DNA of 64,000 bases, taken from a phage. This document shows, one piece after another, positions 13,870 through 24,861 of the stretch (position 1 is the first letter of the stretch; the number at the start of each line of letters is the position of its first letter). Under the pieces are notes generated by a model, which had not been told where the DNA came from, did no database searches, and was given only the letters and a program-made list of their open reading frames with translations. A program made the position numbers and the translations under genes. The stretch is from sequence record PZ151149.1. One strand, 5' to 3'.

Positions 13870-15339
13870 CTATTCCCCATTACCATTATACTTTCTTTGC
13901 TTAGTTATCCACACTCTAACCATCTCTACTGATTCACCGTCAGACGGATCAAGAGTTTTTCCTTTTTTCTTCATGCGATACTTAAATCCGTTAAATCTTG
14001 CATTCTCTTGCTCGTTAAAGTCGAACATCTTTTTAAATGATTTTCGCCCTTTACGCTCACCACATTCTAGCGGAATCATTCGGTCTGTTATTACATTGGC
14101 ATTAGGTAGAAACGTTTTTAGATAATCCACCAAAGCCCAATCAGGAACATATAGATTAACATTCTCCTTGCTATCGTTGTCTCTCAGGTTACAACGCAAA
14201 CATAATTGAAATGCTGGTTCCAGATAATCAGACACATGACGCGCTTTCAAAAACTCGTTTGTCGGGAGATCACAACTATTAGCAAGACCTTTTAAAATAT
14301 CAATCTCCCATCGTTGAGGGTTAAAGCTGAACATCACAGCAACATTTTTATGATGAATGTAAGAGTTAAGACCATAAGATCCGTAAGGTATCCGCTCACC
14401 AATACCATTTGTGCACGCTTCACGGTCCCGATTCACTGTATAAATGAAGTTATCACCACATTCATTTTTAACCATATCAACAAGACGTTCAAAGGTATTG
14501 TTTGTTTCTGACTGGTGACGCGACCATCGTTCGGAGTCCGTCATAAGGATGATGTTAACTCTATCTGTATTTTTATACTCTTTGAAATATAGTCTGGATT
14601 CTAGCGCACTCGGAACAAAATCGCAATTTGCATAGTATCGTAGATACTTCCCACTATATGTATCAAAGAGATTTGCACATGCTATCGTAACCTTTTTAAA
14701 GTCTCCCCATGTACCGTGTTTGTTATCGTTCAAGAAAACAATTTTCGACCCATTCTTCCGGTGTCCTTCGTTATGTTTTACCATAACGTTGATTTTCTTC
14801 TCTAATAACGCCTCATAAAGCCCTCTAAGAGAAGAATCGATCATATCAGTACCATCCTTTGCACTTTCTATCTTTTCTTTGATAGCGGCCTTCTCGGAGT
14901 CTTTTAGAACTAAGTTCTGTAGACATTCCGATTCGTCGGCGATTGGTTCGCAATGCTTCGTGATAAGTTCAAGATTAGACTTAAACGGATACTCATTAAA
15001 TTCAACCAGTTGAGGAACTTCATCAATGTAAAGCGCATAATCACCAAACATTTTTGAACGTTCCATATTAGATAACGCTGTATGTGTAATGAATATCACA
15101 TCAGCACCATCTTTAACTGATTGCATTATCGACGCTTGCACTGTCTTAAGGCTTCTTAGTCTTGTGCTATCAATCAAGACAGCACGACCGCCCATTCTTT
15201 TAAACTTATTGTAAGATTGTTCACTTAAAACACGAGATGGCGAAGCAATAACCGCTTTTTCTTTTGTCTCTAGGACGTGGGAAAGTATAGCATCAGTTTT
15301 CCCCGCCGCTGGCAATGCGATTAATGTTTCAATCTTCAT
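13870..15339 (-). CDS. Uncharacterised P-loop NTPase, helicase-like N-terminal domain
   Basis: 489 aa; Walker A ALPAAGKT, VIASPSRVL (motif Ia-like) and YIDEVPQ (Walker B-like); no match recalled to known T4 genes at this locus. Confidence 0.6.
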   Translation of the reverse strand: MKIETLIALPAAGKTDAILSHVLETKEKAVIASPSRVLSEQSYNKFKRMGGRAVLIDSTRLRSLKTVQASIMQSVKDGADVIFITHTALSNMERSKMFGDYALYIDEVPQLVEFNEYPFKSNLELITKHCEPIADESECLQNLVLKDSEKAAIKEKIESAKDGTDMIDSSLRGLYEALLEKKINVMVKHNEGHRKNGSKIVFLNDNKHGTWGDFKKVTIACANLFDTYSGKYLRYYANCDFVPSALESRLYFKEYKNTDRVNIILMTDSERWSRHQSETNNTFERLVDMVKNECGDNFIYTVNRDREACTNGIGERIPYGSYGLNSYIHHKNVAVMFSFNPQRWEIDILKGLANSCDLPTNEFLKARHVSDYLEPAFQLCLRCNLRDNDSKENVNLYVPDWALVDYLKTFLPNANVITDRMIPLECGERKGRKSFKKMFDFNEQENARFNGFKYRMKKKGKTLDPSDGESVEMVRVWITKQRKYNGNGE

Positions 15340-15626: not shown

Positions 15627-15650
15627 AATATATTCCTCACTCAAGAATTA

Positions 15651-15806
15651 CTTAATGATACTTACTTTACCAGATCCATGACAATGAGCGCAACACCCAT
15701 CACCACGCAATCCTGTTCCGTTACAGTGTTTACACTTCTTCAACGGTAAAGTCATTATAGCAAATAAAGCAATAATGAACACCGAAACTAAATTCTCAAT
15801 AATCAT
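15651..15806 (-). CDS. possible small Cys-rich membrane-anchored protein (51 aa)
   Basis: Unlisted short ORF MIIENLVSVFIIALFAIMTLPLKKCKHCNGTGLRGDGCCAHCHGSGK; start overlaps upstream stop. Confidence 0.25.
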
Positions 15807-16065
15807 AAATCGCCCTCAGTTCTTTATAGCCTCCAATGTGCTCGTTGTCAATGAATATCTGGGGGTATACAAACCGGAGGCTCTTTGAGTTTAGCCTCCC
15901 CGCCAGTTCTTCAATCATATCACGGTCGGGAATAATGTCAACCCCGACCTGCTTGAATACTGGTTTAAGTGTATACGGAATACCCAGATCATCCAGTAGC
16001 TTCATTGCACCAATACAACCATAACAATGATAAGCCTCTTTCGGTATGCCGTATATCTCGATCAT
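15796..16065 (-). CDS. nrdH: Glutaredoxin-like protein (NrdH-like)
   Basis: 89 aa, CYGC redox motif near N-terminus, position between 55 and nrdG as in T4. Confidence 0.65.
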   Translation of the reverse strand: MIEIYGIPKEAYHCYGCIGAMKLLDDLGIPYTLKPVFKQVGVDIIPDRDMIEELAGRLNSKSLRFVYPQIFIDNEHIGGYKELRAIYDY

Positions 16066-16538
16066 TTCTCAGCCTTTAATCTTTCTAGTTCTTCTTCCAG
16101 TTCCTTGATCCGTTGGTCACGTTCAAAGTCACGCTGTAGCTTAGTGGCAAATACTCGCTTAAACTGATTGTAATCATCGATTTTAAACACTTCTTCTTCG
16201 CCATAGCGACGCACAGAAACTTCGTAGTTATTGAAGAATTGTTGCATCATTGCTTCGGATGATAGCTCTGCTGATACCACTTTAAAATATTGATCTTCTG
16301 TAGGCGAAAACCAATTACAAGCATAAAGATAAACCTTTTCATTGTCTGGACACTGGTAAGCCTTACCATCGATTTCAATCACAGAAACATATTCAGGTAT
16401 ACTAGATGAATCAATAGCTAAGACTTTAAACGCACGGTCCCCGATAAACTCGGAGATCACACGATTCGCATCACTGGTTGCAAATGCTTTACGCGCTTGT
16501 TCGTTTTTCCACTGATAGGTCATACCAACAACAAACAT
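16062..16538 (-). CDS. Member of expanded paralogous domain family (one repeat + coiled-coil tail)
   Basis: MFVVGMTYQWKNEQARKAF...VIEIDGKAY...YF motif shared with neighbouring ORFs; ATG at 16538. Confidence 0.6.
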   Translation of the reverse strand: MFVVGMTYQWKNEQARKAFATSDANRVISEFIGDRAFKVLAIDSSSIPEYVSVIEIDGKAYQCPDNEKVYLYACNWFSPTEDQYFKVVSAELSSEAMMQQFFNNYEVSVRRYGEEEVFKIDDYNQFKRVFATKLQRDFERDQRIKELEEELERLKAEK

Positions 16539-16539
16539 A

Positions 16540-17364
16540 TTACCAACCTCGCTCTTTACCAATCAAAAATTCAACTTCACGACGTTTAATGTCTTCTTGA
16601 AGGTCTTTAATCTTCTGGCGATCTTGCATGATTTCATCCATCTTGTCAAGTGCTGTAATGAAGTCATCGAAACGTTCAAAGGTTTTACCTTCATTTGCTT
16701 CGCCAAATTTAACCATTGTCAGGCCGTAACGACTACTAAACAGACGTTTCAACTGTCCAACGATTTTAGAATCAGTGGTTATAACTTCCAATTCTTCTAC
16801 TTCACGAAAGAATTTTCTATCAGAATCAATAAACCAGCTAGTTCCTTTATGGTCTCTATCTTCGGTTGCGCTCATTAGAGTATGGTCTTTACCATCAATT
16901 TCAATTACATCAATTTGCCCACATGGACTAACATTTTTAACAGTAAAAGGTCTATAATTTATTGCTCGTGCAATAACATAATTAAGGTTAGATACGTTTT
17001 CAGCATAATGACAGAAGTCGGTCATAGCCTTATCATCTTTCCAAGTATAAGTTTTACCAACTTCCCATTTCTGGGGAACTTCTTCAACTTCACGAAAGAA
17101 TTTTCTATCAAATGGACTAAACAAATATGTTGACTTCCAAATGTCTTTTCCTGTAGCAGTTTTCGCCGTATGATAAACACCGTCTAGCTCTATTGCATCA
17201 ATCCAACCGTTACCCTCGATCTCGATGATGGTAAATGGCTTGTCACCAATAGCTGCACTAATATCGCTGTTAAGTGGAGAAAGAACACCTTCTCCGTTAG
17301 TAATAAACTCAGTTTTAGCGTTTTCGTCTTTCCAAGTGTAAGTTTTACCAATTTCCCATTTCAT
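16540..17364 (-). CDS. Member of expanded paralogous domain family (two tandem repeats + coiled-coil tail)
   Basis: Two internal copies: MKWEIGKTYTWKDENAKTEF...IELDGVYHT...DRKFFREVEEV and QKWEVGKTYTWKDDKAMTDF...IEIDGKDHT...DRKFFREVEELE. Confidence 0.65.
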   Translation of the reverse strand: MKWEIGKTYTWKDENAKTEFITNGEGVLSPLNSDISAAIGDKPFTIIEIEGNGWIDAIELDGVYHTAKTATGKDIWKSTYLFSPFDRKFFREVEEVPQKWEVGKTYTWKDDKAMTDFCHYAENVSNLNYVIARAINYRPFTVKNVSPCGQIDVIEIDGKDHTLMSATEDRDHKGTSWFIDSDRKFFREVEELEVITTDSKIVGQLKRLFSSRYGLTMVKFGEANEGKTFERFDDFITALDKMDEIMQDRQKIKDLQEDIKRREVEFLIGKERGW

Positions 17365-17376
17365 AATATATTCCCC

Positions 17377-17862
17377 TTAACCGATTTTATCAAGTTCGTT
17401 TAACGCTTTCTCTGCTTCCTGTATAGCTTGCACCCTTTCCGGCATTTTGTCAAGAAAATCTTTCAACTCTTCAAAACTGGAGATATGACGCAAGGCGTTA
17501 GCACCGATAGCCGCATGTGATTTGCATTCAAAGCGGATTTTATAATTATCCATAGCCAATTTGAGAAGATCAATTAGATCATGTTCATGACCAGGCAATA
17601 AAACTTCTTTGAAGCACGCTCGGTCGGCATCGGAAAACCATATATTATCACCAACATCGATAGAACTAATATAATCCCCTTCGTGATTATAGATTGAACG
17701 TACATTACCCCAACGGTCTACCGTAGCGACAGTAAATGGTTTATCTAGATATGTAAACACACCATCAATATTAGGTTTTTGTTCGTAACGCCAACCATCA
17801 CGCAAAATACGCTTTTCGTCCTCACCAACCAACTTATATGTCTTCCCTTCTTCCCATTTCAT
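17377..17862 (-). CDS. Member of expanded paralogous domain family
   Basis: MKWEEGKTYKL...DADRACFKEV; start at ATG 17862. Confidence 0.6.
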   Translation of the reverse strand: MKWEEGKTYKLVGEDEKRILRDGWRYEQKPNIDGVFTYLDKPFTVATVDRWGNVRSIYNHEGDYISSIDVGDNIWFSDADRACFKEVLLPGHEHDLIDLLKLAMDNYKIRFECKSHAAIGANALRHISSFEELKDFLDKMPERVQAIQEAEKALNELDKIG

Positions 17863-17866
17863 AATA

Positions 17867-18394
17867 TCATCTCTCATTTTTGATACGTGATTCTAATTGG
17901 ATCATACGGTCGCGCGTTTGCTTATATTCGCGGATAGCACCGATTCGGCTAGGCATACCATCCAGTACGCTCTTAATACCTTCTAGGGTAGTGATTTTAG
18001 CAATGCTATTATGCAATCCTGTCTTATCGATCAACTGAATGTCGTAGGCTTCCATAAGCAGACCCAGACGTTCTAAAGTTAGGTCTTCTTCTTTTTCTTC
18101 CGATTCTGGAATCTTAGGTTCAATAGTAACTTCGGTAAAGAAACGACGCTCACCCGACCAAAACCACACGCCGGAACAGCCAATAGGGGATTCTTTTAAC
18201 GTCATAGAGTCGAAATTACTACCAATAATAGTAATTTCTCTAACATCACCATCATCATCAAGGTCTTCTACCCTAAACGGGCGACCAGCCAACAAGTCAA
18301 CAATACATCTGTTAATAGACGACGAAAATTTAGTCAGTTCGGCTTTCGACGCTTCGCATTCAATCTTGTAAGTTTTACCAACTTCCCATTCCAT
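17867..18394 (-). CDS. Member of expanded paralogous domain family
   Basis: MEWEVGKTYKIECEASKAEL...GERRFFTEV; ATG at 18394 with GAGGTGA SD. Confidence 0.6.
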   Translation of the reverse strand: MEWEVGKTYKIECEASKAELTKFSSSINRCIVDLLAGRPFRVEDLDDDGDVREITIIGSNFDSMTLKESPIGCSGVWFWSGERRFFTEVTIEPKIPESEEKEEDLTLERLGLLMEAYDIQLIDKTGLHNSIAKITTLEGIKSVLDGMPSRIGAIREYKQTRDRMIQLESRIKNER

Positions 18395-18404
18395 AATAAT
18401 CACC

Positions 18405-18908
18405 TCAAATAATTTTCACTGGAATACTATTAACAATCTTGTATTGTACTTGATTGTCAGACCCCCGCCACGGCTTCTTCGTTGGCATATCTTTAATATA
18501 ACGCCCATCGATGAACATGTCAACTGATTCTACAATTTTTCTTTGCTCATCATTCAATTGGTCAAGGGTATAACCAGACCATAGCCAAATATCTTTATTT
18601 GGCATCCATGATTTTACTTCATCGATGATCCGCTGTACACCCTTTAAATTGCGTTTATACAGTGGATCACCGCCTAAGAATGTTAGCCCCTGAATAAAAT
18701 CAGGTCTAAGCAGATCCAGAATCAATCCCATTGTGTCATCAGTGAATGGTTCCCCGTTCTTAGGATTGAGTAGACTGGAATTAAAGCAACCATCACATGC
18801 GTGTGAACATCCGGTAACGTAAAGGGAGACTCTCACTCCCTCACCGTTAACCATATCACAATCTTTAATATCGGCATAGCGTAGTTTGCCGTATGTATCA
18901 GAACTCAT
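18405..18908 (-). CDS. nrdG: Anaerobic ribonucleotide reductase activating protein NrdG (radical SAM)
   Basis: CxxxCxxC-type cluster VTGCSHACDGC, LTFLGGDPLY, DIWLWSGY, KKPWRGSDNQ; strong similarity to T4 NrdG. Confidence 0.85.
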   Translation of the reverse strand: MSSDTYGKLRYADIKDCDMVNGEGVRVSLYVTGCSHACDGCFNSSLLNPKNGEPFTDDTMGLILDLLRPDFIQGLTFLGGDPLYKRNLKGVQRIIDEVKSWMPNKDIWLWSGYTLDQLNDEQRKIVESVDMFIDGRYIKDMPTKKPWRGSDNQVQYKIVNSIPVKII

Positions 18909-19125
18909 ATTCAATTACCCCGAACTCGTTTACAATCTGCGCTTTATAGTAACCGCCGCGAGATGCTAATAGATAAGCTGGGCTTAGGTATTCGTATTCA
19001 CGGATTTCTACTTGTGCGTTTTCAGTTTCCCAAATCAGTAAAGTCCACATATTTGATTCTCCTGTAAAGTTGTATCTCGTCTTGATGAATATAGTATAGG
19101 GGATCTCGCGATCCCCGTCAAGCAT
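18898..19125 (-). CDS. hypothetical protein
   Basis: 75-aa ORF. Confidence 0.4.
   Translation of the reverse strand: MLDGDREIPYTIFIKTRYNFTGESNMWTLLIWETENAQVEIREYEYLSPAYLLASRGGYYKAQIVNEFGVIEYEF
19093..19121 (-). promoter_or_regulatory. Early-type promoter TTGACG-17-TATACT with hairpin-forming spacer
   Basis: Spacer GGGATCGCGAGATCCCC is self-complementary; lies just upstream of 18898..19125 ORF. Confidence 0.4.
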
Positions 19126-19653
19126 TTATTTTAAATTTTTTCGAATGTATTCAGACCATTCCTTCCCCGTCATTTCGGACCCATTCTGGAAACTGAAATA
19201 TTCATACGGCATCGAGTCAAGATAAAACAGGATCATACATCGCGCCATATAATACCAATCACGATTAAAGTAAACTACGTTATCACCAGTACCATCAACC
19301 CCTTTATCATAACCATCGCGGGTACGGGCTACCCATTGAATAGTATCATTTTTCTCACGGATAGTAACAGGTTCCCAATATCCAGCACATCCAGCATGAC
19401 CACACGAACAAGTAAGGAAGTATTGGCCTTTTGCTTTGTTGTCATCCCATTCACGATGGATTGGTTTGATCTCGTGAAACAGTGCCAAGCAATCATGATT
19501 ATGCAACACTGGCTTACCATCAATCAATGCATGGAATGTATACAAACGACCAGTAGACAAATAGCTATCCTCACGCTCACAGAGTTCAATAGCAATCTTT
19601 TTAGCTTGTTCTTTGTGCCGTTGTGCTTTACGCTTACGGTTTAATGATTTCAT
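19126..19653 (-). CDS. hypothetical protein (Cys-rich CSCGHAGCAGYW segment)
   Basis: ATG at 19653 with GAGGTGA SD. Confidence 0.5.
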   Translation of the reverse strand: MKSLNRKRKAQRHKEQAKKIAIELCEREDSYLSTGRLYTFHALIDGKPVLHNHDCLALFHEIKPIHREWDDNKAKGQYFLTCSCGHAGCAGYWEPVTIREKNDTIQWVARTRDGYDKGVDGTGDNVVYFNRDWYYMARCMILFYLDSMPYEYFSFQNGSEMTGKEWSEYIRKNLK

Positions 19654-19670
19654 ATTCACCTCACACATTA

Positions 19671-20216
19671 TCAAAGGTCGCGATATAGCACATTATGAAA
19701 ATGAGAACTTGCATTACCAATATTGTAGATAATAAATTCTTCATCCGGCGCTTGCGCTACAAATTGAGTATGAGCAACCGCTACAACCTTAAAAATACGA
19801 TCCGTAATCTTGTGTTTAATTTCTGCTCCTACTTCCATAGGAACATATTCATGTGTTTCTGTTTCAGTCGCAAAACAGCTATCTTCTTCATAAGCACGAA
19901 CAAATCGATCGCAATCAGTACGCTTAACAAATTCAAGAGTATATAATTCTCGTGAATTGTCGGTATAGACCAATACAGAATTATTCTGATAGCGAATCAC
20001 ATACAGGTTATTATCATCGTCAAGTACACAAAAGCTACGGATTTGTGTTCCTTCGCCTTTACTCCAGCAGATATTAACCACGGTTCCTCTAATAAAAAAA
20101 CTTTCCTTTAAATTAAAACTAGCCAATGTGCTAGCGTGCATTTTAACAACAACACCATCACCAATTTCCAGTTTACGAAGTTTAACTTCTTTGCTCAGTA
20201 CACAAAACATCATCAT
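19671..20216 (-). CDS. hypothetical protein
   Basis: 181-aa ORF starting MMMF. Confidence 0.5.
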   Translation of the reverse strand: MMMFCVLSKEVKLRKLEIGDGVVVKMHASTLASFNLKESFFIRGTVVNICWSKGEGTQIRSFCVLDDDNNLYVIRYQNNSVLVYTDNSRELYTLEFVKRTDCDRFVRAYEEDSCFATETETHEYVPMEVGAEIKHKITDRIFKVVAVAHTQFVAQAPDEEFIIYNIGNASSHFHNVLYRDL

Positions 20217-20244: not shown

Positions 20245-20272
20245 CATTATACATTAGCTAATCAGGTTGTCA
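20245..20272 (-). promoter_or_regulatory. sigma70-type early promoter (TTGACA-16-TATAAT)
   Basis: Exact hexamers on minus strand upstream of 19671..20216. Confidence 0.45.
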
Positions 20273-20280
20273 ACACCCCA

Positions 20281-20311
20281 AAACGAAAAAGCCGACCCTT
20301 TCGGATCGGCT
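20281..20311 (-). terminator. Rho-independent terminator after nrdD
   Basis: Minus-strand hairpin AGCCGAUCC-GAAA-GGGUCGGCU followed by UUUUUCGUUUU. Confidence 0.6.
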
Positions 20312-22223: not shown

Positions 22224-22718
22224 TTATTTTACCAGTTCTGCTAATTCTTTTTCCGCCGCTTCCAGTTCAGCTTTCAGTTGTTTGATCTCTTGTCGCTTCT
22301 TATTAGCGGCTTCCTGCTTACTATTTCGGATAATCTGATCTAGATACAACTCCCAATCCTGAATATTTTTGATAATGTAGCCGTCAACATTAATTGGTCG
22401 GAGATTCAGTACAGCTTCCAGTTTAGTTGCAAAAACTTTAATTGCTGGTGTGAAGTATTCATATTCGTTATCTTCAAACCAATAACCTAGACTTGCATTA
22501 TCAATACTAAGACGAAGTTCAAGATCAAGGTCTTTATCTTCGGTGTATAGGTCTTTTACACCCCCCATCGAACCAACAACAACTTTAAAACGAATTTTAT
22601 CAACACCACCAAACACATCAGTAAGGATACCAGCAATTGAGCTATTAGCGCAAGATTGGTCGCTGAATGCGTCAAGGTTTTCTTTAGTTACAGTATACCA
22701 AACATCTTGTTTCCACAT
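22224..22718 (-). CDS. hypothetical protein with C-terminal coiled coil (distant relative of the expanded family)
   Basis: 164 aa; N-terminal WKQDVWYTVTKENLDAF and C-terminal KQLKAELEAAEKELAEL. Confidence 0.5.
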   Translation of the reverse strand: MWKQDVWYTVTKENLDAFSDQSCANSSIAGILTDVFGGVDKIRFKVVVGSMGGVKDLYTEDKDLDLELRLSIDNASLGYWFEDNEYEYFTPAIKVFATKLEAVLNLRPINVDGYIIKNIQDWELYLDQIIRNSKQEAANKKRQEIKQLKAELEAAEKELAELVK

Positions 22719-22748
22719 AATATAATCCTCTCGTTGTTAAGTGGGAGT

Positions 22749-22776
22749 ATTATAGCATACTCCCTTCGCATGTCAA
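22749..22776 (-). promoter_or_regulatory. Early promoter with stem-loop (TTGACA-16-TATAAT)
   Basis: -10 embedded in GGGAGUAUGCUAUAAUACUCCC hairpin. Confidence 0.45.
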
Positions 22777-23951
22777 GCACTAACTTTTTTCTTTACTGCT
22801 TTCACCTTCTGGCGAATTGCTCGAATCTCTTCGATCTCTTTTTCAGTCTCTTTAACAATTTCTTTGCGATTCTGAATATCTGTATCGAGATTATCATCAA
22901 GTTTAGGCAGCATGTCAATCAAGAACTTTTTAAAGTCTTTCAGGTTTCGAATAACAGCACCTTCGCCCATTACCGCAACACCCACACCATCCGGCAGATC
23001 ACCAAACAGCTTAACCAGTTCAGACAGATGATCATGATCTTCTAGTGCTTCTTCCGGTTCAGATGGCAGTTCAACAAAGTTATAACGTTCATCATTGCTG
23101 ATCAAGTGATACCAGCAAAGCCCGAAAGATTTCGGTGTATATTCTACACCATCAATTTCAACCGCGTCAACACTTCCATAATCATCTACTTTAGTTACCT
23201 TAAATCCTTGTCCCAGCTTTTGAACAATTTCAACAACATGACTTGATACAGTTTCAGCGGTAAACCAATATGGCAAATTATGCTGATTTGGCTTGTAGCG
23301 TTCACCTACTTTAAATCTCTGACCATCCGCTTGCATAGAATGAAATTGTTGTTTCGTGATTTCCGCGAAGTATTCAAATTCGCCACCATCAAACACACAA
23401 GCCCATTGATCACAAAAACGATCTGCCTTAACAGTTTCACCTTTCGCGGTGATCATGGTAGCTGATCCGTGCAATTCTTCTTCAACTAAAAAGCCATATT
23501 CGACAAAATCAACAAGTTTCATAGCTTCTTTGTGATCTGGATCATGCTCTCCCCAGAATCGCTTAAATTCTTGCAAACCTTCTGGGGTAAACGAATAACA
23601 TTTACCTTTTTCAAAGTAAGTCGGCATTGCATCCTCTTTCTTGTTCATCGCTTCGTATGCCTCTTTTGAGATACGTTTAAAGTATTTGCGCTCATTGTGC
23701 ATAATCATAGTAGACCAATAATAAACGATATCCTCAGCGGAATAAACTACATCTCCAGCTTCAATAGTAATAACATGACCGTGGTCATCTTTTTCTAATA
23801 CTTTAAAGCCCTTTTCTACGATTTCAGCAACCCGAATATGACCACGGCGCGAAGCATCGGTCAGATTAATTGAATAGCGAGAAAAGTCTAGAAACTCATC
23901 TTTACCACCTTCACGGAATGCATAGTAATGACCTTCAAAGAATTTAGCCAT
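22773..23951 (-). CDS. Multi-repeat member of expanded paralogous domain family (about 3 repeats + charged tail)
   Basis: 392 aa; repeats contain GFKVL, V.AVEIDG.EYT, NERKYFKRI-type motifs shared with 24008..24861 ORFs. Confidence 0.6.
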   Translation of the reverse strand: MAKFFEGHYYAFREGGKDEFLDFSRYSINLTDASRRGHIRVAEIVEKGFKVLEKDDHGHVITIEAGDVVYSAEDIVYYWSTMIMHNERKYFKRISKEAYEAMNKKEDAMPTYFEKGKCYSFTPEGLQEFKRFWGEHDPDHKEAMKLVDFVEYGFLVEEELHGSATMITAKGETVKADRFCDQWACVFDGGEFEYFAEITKQQFHSMQADGQRFKVGERYKPNQHNLPYWFTAETVSSHVVEIVQKLGQGFKVTKVDDYGSVDAVEIDGVEYTPKSFGLCWYHLISNDERYNFVELPSEPEEALEDHDHLSELVKLFGDLPDGVGVAVMGEGAVIRNLKDFKKFLIDMLPKLDDNLDTDIQNRKEIVKETEKEIEEIRAIRQKVKAVKKKVSA

Positions 23952-23982
23952 AATATAATCCTCTCGTTGTTTAAATGGGAGT

Positions 23983-24011
23983 ATCTTACTACTCCCGTTT
24001 CATCATGTCAA
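23983..24011 (-). promoter_or_regulatory. Early promoter with stem-loop (TTGACA-17-TAAGAT)
   Basis: GGGAGUAGUAAGAUACUCCC hairpin spans the -10. Confidence 0.45.
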
Positions 24012-24574
24012 GCGTTAAATGACTTTTGGATCTCTTTCAGTTCAGCTACTTTATCGGCGCTGAATTTAGCGTAGGTATCATGTCGAATAATTTCACTTTC
24101 GAGAAAGGTTTCCAGCCGAGATCTATTTTCAATAAGGAACTCTTTCAGGTCTTCCGCGTTCTTGATAAAGATTTTATTGTCAGTAATGTCATCTTCAATC
24201 GCAAAGGAGATCGAGCGAACTTTACCAAACAAGTTAATCAGATCTTCCAGAGATTCTTCTTTCTTAATTGGTTTCATTTCTTCAAACTGCTTTTTAGTGA
24301 TTCGTTTAAAGTATTTGCGCTCGTTTGCAGCAATCAGAACAGATGCACCTTCATACTCATGAGTTTCTACCAGATACACACGCCCCATCGCATCAACAGT
24401 GAGAACTTTAAAGCCGTTACAAAGCACGTCATACAAGAACTTATTATGTTGCGGACATCGTTTGATAAATTCCTCTGCGGACTCAGCATTACGGAAAGTG
24501 TAATAACGACCTCGTTCAAAAACAGCATCAGTTGAAGACTTAGCCGGATACAATTTATACGTTTTCTGTACCAT
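24008..24574 (-). CDS. Member of expanded paralogous domain family
   Basis: MVQKTYKLY..., NGFKVLTVD, ANERKYFKRI; ATG at 24574 with AGAGGA SD. Confidence 0.55.
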   Translation of the reverse strand: MVQKTYKLYPAKSSTDAVFERGRYYTFRNAESAEEFIKRCPQHNKFLYDVLCNGFKVLTVDAMGRVYLVETHEYEGASVLIAANERKYFKRITKKQFEEMKPIKKEESLEDLINLFGKVRSISFAIEDDITDNKIFIKNAEDLKEFLIENRSRLETFLESEIIRHDTYAKFSADKVAELKEIQKSFNA

Positions 24575-24588
24575 AATATAATCCTCTA

Positions 24589-24861
24589 TCATTTCACTAA
24601 TTGAACAGCACGAAACAGAATGCGGTCACACGGAAGAAGCATAAATTCCCAACGCGAATCAAAGTCTTTAGCGGTATATGTTTTCCCATCAACCGAGATT
24701 TCACTTACATAACCAATAGGTGACACTTTAAGAACAGTAAACCCATTCTTGATGACTTCGTAGGTATCTTTCAAACCTTCGTAGTCATCCTCTAGGAAGT
24801 CTTTACGTGCTTGCTCAGATTTAAAAACATAGGCCACACCGGATTTAAACATCTTACGCAT
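24589..24861 (-). CDS. Member of expanded paralogous domain family (single domain)
   Basis: GVAYVFKSEQARKDF...NGFTVLKV...ISVDGKTYTA...ILFRAV. Confidence 0.55.
   Translation of the reverse strand: MRKMFKSGVAYVFKSEQARKDFLEDDYEGLKDTYEVIKNGFTVLKVSPIGYVSEISVDGKTYTAKDFDSRWEFMLLPCDRILFRAVQLVK

Follow-up and report, generated by a model that had tools for sequence, protein, structure and literature searches.

Why a phage should carry four consecutive genes built from copies of one small domain, and what this domain might be, are the questions raised by the interval between nrdG and nrdH in the phage DNA of sequence record PZ151149.1, of which a stretch of 64,000 nucleotides (nt), hereafter called the window, has been analyzed. 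The region from 15700 to 19200 is 98% identical to Escherichia phages FL20 and GEC-3S and 98.4% identical to RB49 over the 93% that aligns, and the window and these three phages belong to the genus Krischvirus of the family Straboviridae, the "pseudo-T-even" RB49 group. The four genes are RB49ORF051c, 050c, 049c and 048c, each a "hypothetical protein" in RB49. By sequence comparison, the ~90-residue N-terminal domain (N-domain) that they share is a member of the named, phage-restricted GoF/Frd.2/MotB.1 family (Kim et al. 2025), and among closely related phages it occurs as sharply bounded, exchangeable alleles joined to a conserved C-terminal half (C-half). The genes and their parts are placed in the window as follows.

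17867–18394, minus strand: g051 (RB49ORF051c), 175 amino acids; start MEWEV..., from the Shine–Dalgarno sequence and the RB49/GEC-3S annotation
parts of g051, minus strand: N-domain 18116–18394, then an acidic linker, C-half 17867–18115
17377–17862, minus strand: g050 (RB49ORF050c), 161 amino acids; start MKWEE..., from the Shine–Dalgarno sequence and annotation
parts of g050, minus strand: GoF-like N-domain 17593–17862; C-half 17377–17592
16540–17364, minus strand: g049 (RB49ORF049c), 274 amino acids, with two GoF-like N-domains
parts of g049, minus strand: N1 17080–17364; N2 16780–17079; C-half 16540–16779
16062–16538, minus strand: g048 (RB49ORF048c), 158 amino acids; start MFVVG...
parts of g048, minus strand: GoF-like N-domain 16263–16538; C-half 16062–16262

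The spacing within the array is 1–12 nt or an overlap, and the g048 stop codon overlaps the nrdH start. A first-pass annotation, made from the letters alone, had described five ~90-residue modules in four consecutive genes at 16062–18403, next to nrdG. The open reading frames (ORFs) lie where it put them, and the likely starts (18394, 17862, 17364 and 16538), taken from Shine–Dalgarno sequences and published annotations, fall a few codons inside these limits, giving an array of 16062–18394. The count of modules is also right, g049 having two and each of the other three genes one, and the adjoining gene is nrdG according to the RB49 annotation. The motifs quoted at that stage (WExGKTY, PFxV, IEIDG and DRKFFxEV) are seen in the module alignment, and Smith–Waterman comparisons against 300 shuffles gave z = 7.9–44.7 for nine of the ten module pairs, including N1 and N2 of g049 (52% identity, z = 44.7). 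The sole pair not significant directly, g050_N and g048_N (z = 0.9), is bridged by the other modules. The invariant columns of the module are G, Y, F, V, G and F only, all of them hydrophobic or glycine, and the module is thus not an enzyme fold, in line with the initial remark that no named enzyme fold was recognized in it. Since no polar residue is conserved, these domains are better regarded as binding modules than as enzymes.

T4 GoF (ComC-α) is an early protein of 141 amino acids, and the goF mutations D25Y and G84R allow T4 to grow on rho (nusD) mutant hosts. Pfam and NCBIfam hold no family for GoF or for any of the four array proteins, and none of the eight family proteins of the window matches PF03197 (Bacteriophage FRD2) at E ≤ 1, the score of T4 Frd.2 itself being 133 bits. 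The relationship emerges from PHROGs: phrog_622, which holds both T4 GoF and Frd.2, is matched by all four array proteins at 7e-11 to 1e-4. The best of these matches is that of g051 (7e-11), which also matches phrog_5347 at 5e-66, and T4 GoF reciprocally matches phrog_5347 at 6.5e-7 with an alignment that reaches profile position 136. Both g049 and g048 also match PHROGs annotated "goF mRNA metabolism modulator", the latter protein at 6.5e-6 (phrog_13003) and 1.2e-4 (phrog_2980). Consistently, a profile built from ten window modules only, with no outside sequences (A1), matches the N-terminal domain of T4 GoF end to end at 36.8 bits (GoF residues 3–91, model positions 3–89) and Frd.2 at 14.7 bits, MotB.1 being detected marginally at 5–14 bits. 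The identity of the window modules to GoF is ~20–25%. A search of 1.84 billion representative proteins with A1 gave 76 matches at E ≤ 1e-3, 61 of which are small proteins that begin with one to three copies of the domain, including a T4-type GoF orthologue (P0121). The other 15, which are large fn3, bacterial cadherin and Big_9 repeat proteins, were rejected as spurious because only a stretch of ~30 residues matched. With a single module as the tblastn query, the matches were confined to 59 Krischvirus genomes, and the PDB sequences gave no significant match to the alignment profile, the best one (E = 0.24) being to designed helical proteins.

The family has been known genetically since the 1970s–90s and was described structurally in 2025 as an SH3/"LSm-like" barrel (PMC12152347). 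Since family and fold are published and PHROGs link the array to goF, the module is not a new kind of domain, and its initial description as an unrecognized family has to be replaced by homology to the N-terminal domain of T4 GoF and Frd.2. The GoF match does not, however, explain the array, because the wild-type function of GoF is itself unsolved. The main text of Kim et al. does not mention RB49, Krischvirus or tandem arrays (PMC12152347), and no prior description of this locus was found in the literature searched.

AlphaFold2 (AF2) predicts g049 N2 with high confidence (predicted local distance difference test score, pLDDT, 86.9; predicted template modeling score, pTM, 0.79) as a five-stranded bent antiparallel β-barrel in the order β1-α1-α2-β2-β3-β4-β5, and its nearest solved neighbors are FeoA-type SH3-like domains. 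A Foldseek search of BFVD returned 77 uncharacterized proteins at E ≤ 1e-3, and those listed by name come from T4-type phages of many hosts and from phAPEC8. The closest structural neighbors, FeoA (PF04023; 11% identity) and the SH3-like domains of the iron-dependent regulators DtxR and IdeR (CATH 2.30.30.90), share the placement of helices between β1 and β2 of the barrel, but the window modules have no sequence similarity to them, no Pfam match, no metal ligands and no FeoB context, and are phage-restricted. The same N-domain fold is predicted for T4 Frd.2, which has phrog_622 in common with GoF and differs in that no window protein matches its Pfam family, and for T4 MotB.1, the third member of the published family (PMC12152347), for which the sequence match is marginal. 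All five modules are acidic, with an isoelectric point (pI) of 4.5–5.1 and a net charge of −4 to −7, compared with a pI of ~10 for the Hfq core. In the alignment, GoF Asp-25 falls at the end of α1 and Gly-84 at the K/R of DRKFF, which is a lead rather than a test.

The full-length AF2 model of g051, for which 34 paralogues and orthologues were aligned, has an N-domain with a pLDDT of ~90, an acidic linker (residues 93–104) below 50, and a C-half at 55–77 that consists of a helix, two short strands, a helix and then a long helix (residues 147–174). A flexible linker from the N-domain to a C-terminal domain of variable structure is likewise a feature of the GoF/Frd.2/MotB.1 family. Foldseek found nothing in the PDB for the full-length model at E < 0.4, with the C-half unmatched, and no PDB relative of the C-half was detected by sequence or fold. 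A kinship of the C-half with the C-termini of T4 GoF and Frd.2 was also considered, and since the C-half profile has no match there, the apparent β-α resemblance was dropped. The module is not the sole homologous part of the four proteins: the C-halves are homologous too, weakly in pairwise comparison and clearly by profile, with phrog_5347 spanning all four proteins end to end at nearly full length and seven proteins aligning end to end in the full-length alignment A2. The tails, called charged coiled coils in the first-pass annotation, are indeed charged (41–59% of residues) and predicted as a long helix, but heptad periodicity is significant for g050 only among the four, so that "charged helix" is the safer term. 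Compared with T4 GoF, the array proteins have an N-domain homologous from end to end, the same order of N-domain, acidic linker and C-terminal element, the same acidic character and probably the same early expression, but their C-half is longer and distinct (an α/β unit plus a long charged helix), one of them has two N-domains, and they are encoded in a four-gene array beside nrdG, with no gene at the T4 goF position in RB49.

Upstream of nrdD, the window holds further family members in a second cluster, found with a hidden Markov model (HMM) of the five modules and with jackhmmer. It spans 22224–24861 on the minus strand and comprises four genes with six modules.

22224–22718, minus strand: 164 amino acids, a divergent module that needed a broader family HMM
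22773–23951, minus strand: 392 amino acids, three modules, "frd.2" in the RB49 annotation
24008–24592, minus strand: 194 amino acids, one module
24589–24861, minus strand: 90 amino acids, a bare module

Proteins of this cluster match phrog_8944 "goF" at 2.6e-214 and 6.6e-99, and the 392-residue protein annotated "frd.2" has no match to Pfam FRD2 (PF03197). A twelfth, divergent GoF-like module (27.7 bits) lies just outside the window in RB49 Dc2, a protein of 211 amino acids encoded beside gene 41 (RB49 piece L004, 11993–12628); T4 gp61.2, its positional counterpart, was considered as a further member and is not in the family. The family HMM gave no match in RB49 114–164 kb, and with 78–114 kb left out of the count, RB49-type phages have at least 12 modules in nine genes, four times the T4 count. 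In T4 the HMM recovers GoF, Frd.2 and, weakly, MotB.1, and no further member at 1–62 kb and 142–149 kb, in agreement with the three-member family of Kim et al. (PMC12152347). The comparison of at least 12 modules with three supports the earlier view of a tandem, lineage-expanded array of paralogous domains. Eleven of the twelve modules flank nrdD, nrdG, nrdH or nrdC. The T4 nrdG–nrdH interval holds only the small gene 55.8, and at the T4 position RB49 has no goF, cef, motB or motB.1, 39.2 being next to dexA there (L004 5128–5971). Family proteins with two or three modules and different C-terminal domains are also found in other phage lineages (P0083, P0087, P0093, P0105, P0109, P0116, P0118, P0122, P0123 and P0126), one recurrent type of C-terminus ending in "...VEIYSL..TA..SVSF", and internal domain duplication therefore seems to be recurrent in the GoF family.

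How the array varies was seen by comparing the nrdG–nrdH interval in eight phages, namely the window, RB49, GEC-3S, JK32, E26, UPWr_E1, ELT4 and Makalu_003, five of which were picked because they differ at N2. The mean pairwise nt divergence is as follows.

nrdG and nrdH: 0.02
the four C-halves: 0.03–0.09
g049 N1: 0.05
g051 N-domain: 0.12
g048 N-domain: 0.20
g050 N-domain and g049 N2: 0.25

A table of 60-nt sliding windows shows that blocks of 30–60% divergence begin and end sharply at the domain edges. Each variable block exists as two discrete alleles, N2 being additionally absent in some phages, and the blocks assort independently, with seven allele combinations in the eight phages. The two alleles of the g050 N-domain, for instance, are ~40–60% divergent in nt sequence and the g050 C-half ~4%. 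JK32 and UPWr_E1 have a replacement in the N2 slot, and E26 and ELT4 lack the module: their g049 is a protein of 178 amino acids in which N1 runs straight into the C-half at DRKFFREVEE, the repeated motif; a form with N2 only (P0055) occurs in public assemblies. Among public proteins (68 of the g049 type and 37 of the g051 type), the last 60 residues are 88–100% identical and the N-domains 46–100%.

Alleles of the same locus are 45–58% identical, compared with 20–34% for modules of other loci, with the exception of the N2 A allele, which is nearest to N1. Since, apart from this allele, each allele is most closely related to the others of its own locus, recent gene conversion between paralogues was rejected as their source. 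Between alleles, the synonymous divergence (dS) is saturated (1.0–1.8), and the ratio of nonsynonymous to synonymous divergence (dN/dS) is 0.25–0.45 over whole N-domains and mostly 0–0.12 in the C-halves. Allele B of g048 has a dS of ~1 in both halves and a dN of 0.32 in the N-domain versus 0.06 in the C-half. Positive selection as an explanation was set aside, given that no dN/dS value is above 1 and that dS has reached saturation between alleles. The allelic differences peak in helix α1 (28% identity) and the β4–β5 loop (39%) and are lowest in β1 and α3–β5, segments that double as anchors for recombination. Seven of the eight genomes and dozens of public assemblies have the four genes intact. 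In ELT4, g048 is split into two ORFs by a frameshift (L009 3536–4032), and truncated g051 and g048 products are found in public assemblies (P0074 and P0091), suggesting occasional inactivation or sequencing errors.

The setting of the array bears on when these proteins may be made. Its conserved flanks and the candidate promoters are the following.

18405–18914, minus strand: nrdG, upstream flank (RB49 annotation; ~2% nt divergence among the eight phages)
15796–16065, minus strand: nrdH glutaredoxin, downstream flank (RB49 annotation; ~2% nt divergence)
18495–18523, minus strand: candidate σ70-type (early) promoter, TTGACA-17-TATATT, 11 of 12 consensus matches, inside nrdG (3′ part), ~100 nt upstream of g051
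19093–19121, minus strand: candidate early promoter upstream of ORF053c–nrdG, a consensus match at a site annotated as a promoter in GEC-3S

The candidate at 19093–19121 would drive the whole operon of nrdG, g051, g050, g049, g048 and nrdH. The T4-type late-promoter motif TATAAATA does not occur at 15–25 kb, and the scan found no terminator-like site between nrdG and nrdH. Early co-transcription of the array with nrdG and nrdH may be proposed from these motifs. In their plastic regions, RB49-type phages have strong σ70-like early promoters that are often paired with stem-loops (PeSLs), and Arbiol et al. (2010) tied PeSL cassettes to modular shuffling in RB49 and phi1 (PMC2839356). No PeSL was found in the scan between the four array genes. 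A PeSL-like unit directly follows nrdD (20246–20311, minus strand), with a G+C-rich hairpin and T-run (20311–20290) and then a perfect TTGACA-16-TATAAT promoter (20273–20246), and another 12/12 promoter match lies at 22776–22749 on the minus strand. Among the neighboring minus-strand genes, a 52-residue ORF (RB49ORF046c, 15648–15806) has an N-terminal hydrophobic helix and two CxxCxGxG motifs (CKHCNGTG and CAHCHGSG), the signature of DnaJ-type zinc fingers; a hypothetical protein of 489 residues (RB49ORF044c, 13870–15339) has a Walker-A-like PAAGKT near its N-terminus and may be an ATPase; and two hypothetical genes of ~180 codons (RB49ORF054c and 055c, 19126–20216), between nrdG and nrdD, have no match to the GoF-domain HMM.

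What, then, might the array be for? Building on the established homology, fold, architecture, copy number and allelic pattern, we lean, with little more than even confidence, towards a paralogous array of the GoF/Frd.2 family in which variable recognition N-domains sit on a constant scaffold and the proteins act as early, dispensable host-takeover factors on a host or phage partner. Tandem gene duplication and one internal domain duplication would have produced four paralogues in an early operon of a Krischvirus phage. Each protein would use one or two N-terminal SH3-like barrels of the GoF type as non-enzymatic ligand-recognition modules, followed by a presumably disordered acidic linker and by the conserved C-half (the small α/β unit plus the long charged helix), which is probably a constant scaffold or self-association element. 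The combination of a fast-evolving, recombining N-domain with a strongly conserved C-half suggests such a variable head on a constant body. By analogy with GoF, the proteins may be abundant and dispensable, and the frameshifted g048 of ELT4 and the missing N2 of E26 and ELT4 are consistent with dispensability. They would most likely bind a macromolecule of the host (or of the phage) that belongs to the machinery of gene expression or RNA decay, a target area suggested by GoF genetics (rho alleles and gene 41 mRNA). Wild-type GoF does not stabilize a reporter RNA (PMC12152347), and this, the acidic modules and the lack of an N-terminal Sm helix favor a protein partner over Hfq-like RNA binding. 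The maintenance of several old, very divergent N-domain alleles that are reshuffled by recombination may reflect selection for different target specificities, and the hypervariability lends indirect support to the host-interaction guess of the first-pass annotation.

Several points weigh against this reading. To our knowledge, no binding partner or phenotype is known for any array protein or for wild-type GoF. The dN/dS of 0.25–0.45 in the N-domains is never above 1, and diversifying selection is therefore not demonstrated; relaxed constraint together with recombination could contribute. The choice of five of the eight genomes by their difference at N2 inflates the apparent variation of N2, though not that of the other slots. 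Self-association of the C-half is a guess, given the low confidence of its model and the weak heptad periodicity.

A bolder form of the same idea, which we hold only tentatively, treats the two clusters as a library of specificities, in which twelve barrels, each with several ancient alleles, would serve as interchangeable heads on a constant scaffold, each for a different or polymorphic host factor. Candidate targets would be defence proteins or components of the Rho, RNase E or RNA polymerase machinery, given a further resemblance of the fold to the RNA polymerase-binding KOW, Tudor and CarD domains.

Other explanations have to account for the same pattern. If the array were an anti-defence arsenal, each N-domain variant would neutralize a different bacterial immunity protein, and paralogues and alleles would mirror which defences E. 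coli strains carry. The small size and acidity of the proteins and their probable early expression and dispensability fit this picture, as do the extreme allelic diversity confined to one domain, the presence or absence of a module and a location in one of the plastic genome regions reported from RB49 and phi1 (PMC2839356). Any variable host target would fit equally well, however; no member of the GoF family is tied to a defence system in the literature searched, and the sole functional data on GoF concern mRNA level and stability in rho-mutant hosts (PMC12152347). We regard an anti-defence role as rather unlikely, yet as a live alternative that the data do not separate from the favored reading. 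On another view, the proteins are true LSm/Hfq-like RNA chaperones; they would bind phage or host RNA directly, perhaps in the form of rings, and so control the stability or translation of mRNA. The family has been named "LSm-like", its domain is a five-stranded bent β-barrel like that of Hfq and Sm/LSm proteins, and GoF(D25Y) stabilizes an mRNA post-transcriptionally (PMC12152347); as leads only, G84R adds a basic residue where most modules have K/R (DRKFF), and Asp-25 adjoins an aromatic residue in three modules. However, the topology starts at β1 with two helices between β1 and β2, as in FeoA, and has no N-terminal Sm helix, the modules are acidic where the Hfq core is basic, and no Pfam LSM or Hfq match is found at E ≤ 1. 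Moreover, wild-type GoF and MotB.1 have no clear RNA effect and AlphaFold3 gave no confident multimers for either (PMC12152347). We hold RNA chaperones to be an unlikely account.

The structural likeness to FeoA and to the SH3-like domains of iron-dependent regulators, together with the position of 11 of 12 modules beside nrdD, nrdG, nrdH or nrdC, could be taken to mean that the proteins are iron or redox accessory factors for the neighboring anaerobic ribonucleotide reductase genes, a view that we consider highly improbable. The modules have no conserved His, Cys, Asp or Glu ligands, T4 goF and motB.1 are not linked to nrd genes and the T4 nrdG–nrdH gap holds only 55.8, hypervariability is unexpected in a metabolic helper, and T4-type phages generally take up insertions in the gaps between conserved genes (PMC2839356). 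It is just as hard to believe that these are functionless, decaying ORFans of a hyperplastic region whose variation reflects relaxed constraint only. Frameshifted and truncated copies exist (ELT4 g048; P0074 and P0091), dN/dS never exceeds 1, and the T4 relatives are dispensable in the laboratory (PMC12152347), but the genes are intact in nearly all genomes compared, the C-halves are under strong purifying selection, the divergent N-alleles (dS > 1) retain their core residues and ORF integrity, and the fold is predicted with high confidence.

The closest precedents for such exchange are the T-even internal-protein (IP) loci and the PeSL-flanked ORFan cassettes of RB49 and phi1 (PMC2839356), which are likewise dispensable, replaced as cassettes between near-identical phages and thought to be adaptive. 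The Krischvirus exchange unit differs from them in being an intragenic protein domain rather than an intergenic promoter/stem-loop cassette, and it is bounded by conserved coding sequence, namely the MKWEVGKTY motif, the DRKFFREVE motif and the C-half. As far as the literature searched goes, the four-fold Krischvirus expansion in two clusters around nrdD and nrdG, the two- and three-domain proteins, the distinct conserved C-half and the sharply bounded, independently assorting N-domain alleles are new.

In T4, goF has puzzled geneticists ever since the rho/nusD studies, and these features of Krischvirus make the question of GoF function more tractable. RB49-like phages are a natural experiment, with four times as many copies as T4, multi-domain proteins and sharply bounded N-alleles in near-identical genomes. 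The comparison singles out α1, which ends at the site of GoF D25Y, and the β4–β5 loop as the part that would carry specificity, and the natural alleles are ready-made swaps. In addition, the array neatly illustrates how a phage can evolve by domain cassettes. If the two clusters do act as a library of specificities, intragenic exchange of domain cassettes would be a route by which T4-type phages adapt to host strains, and should the variable heads follow host factors or defences, this family would count, like tail fibres and internal proteins, among the determinants of host range relevant to therapeutic coliphages.

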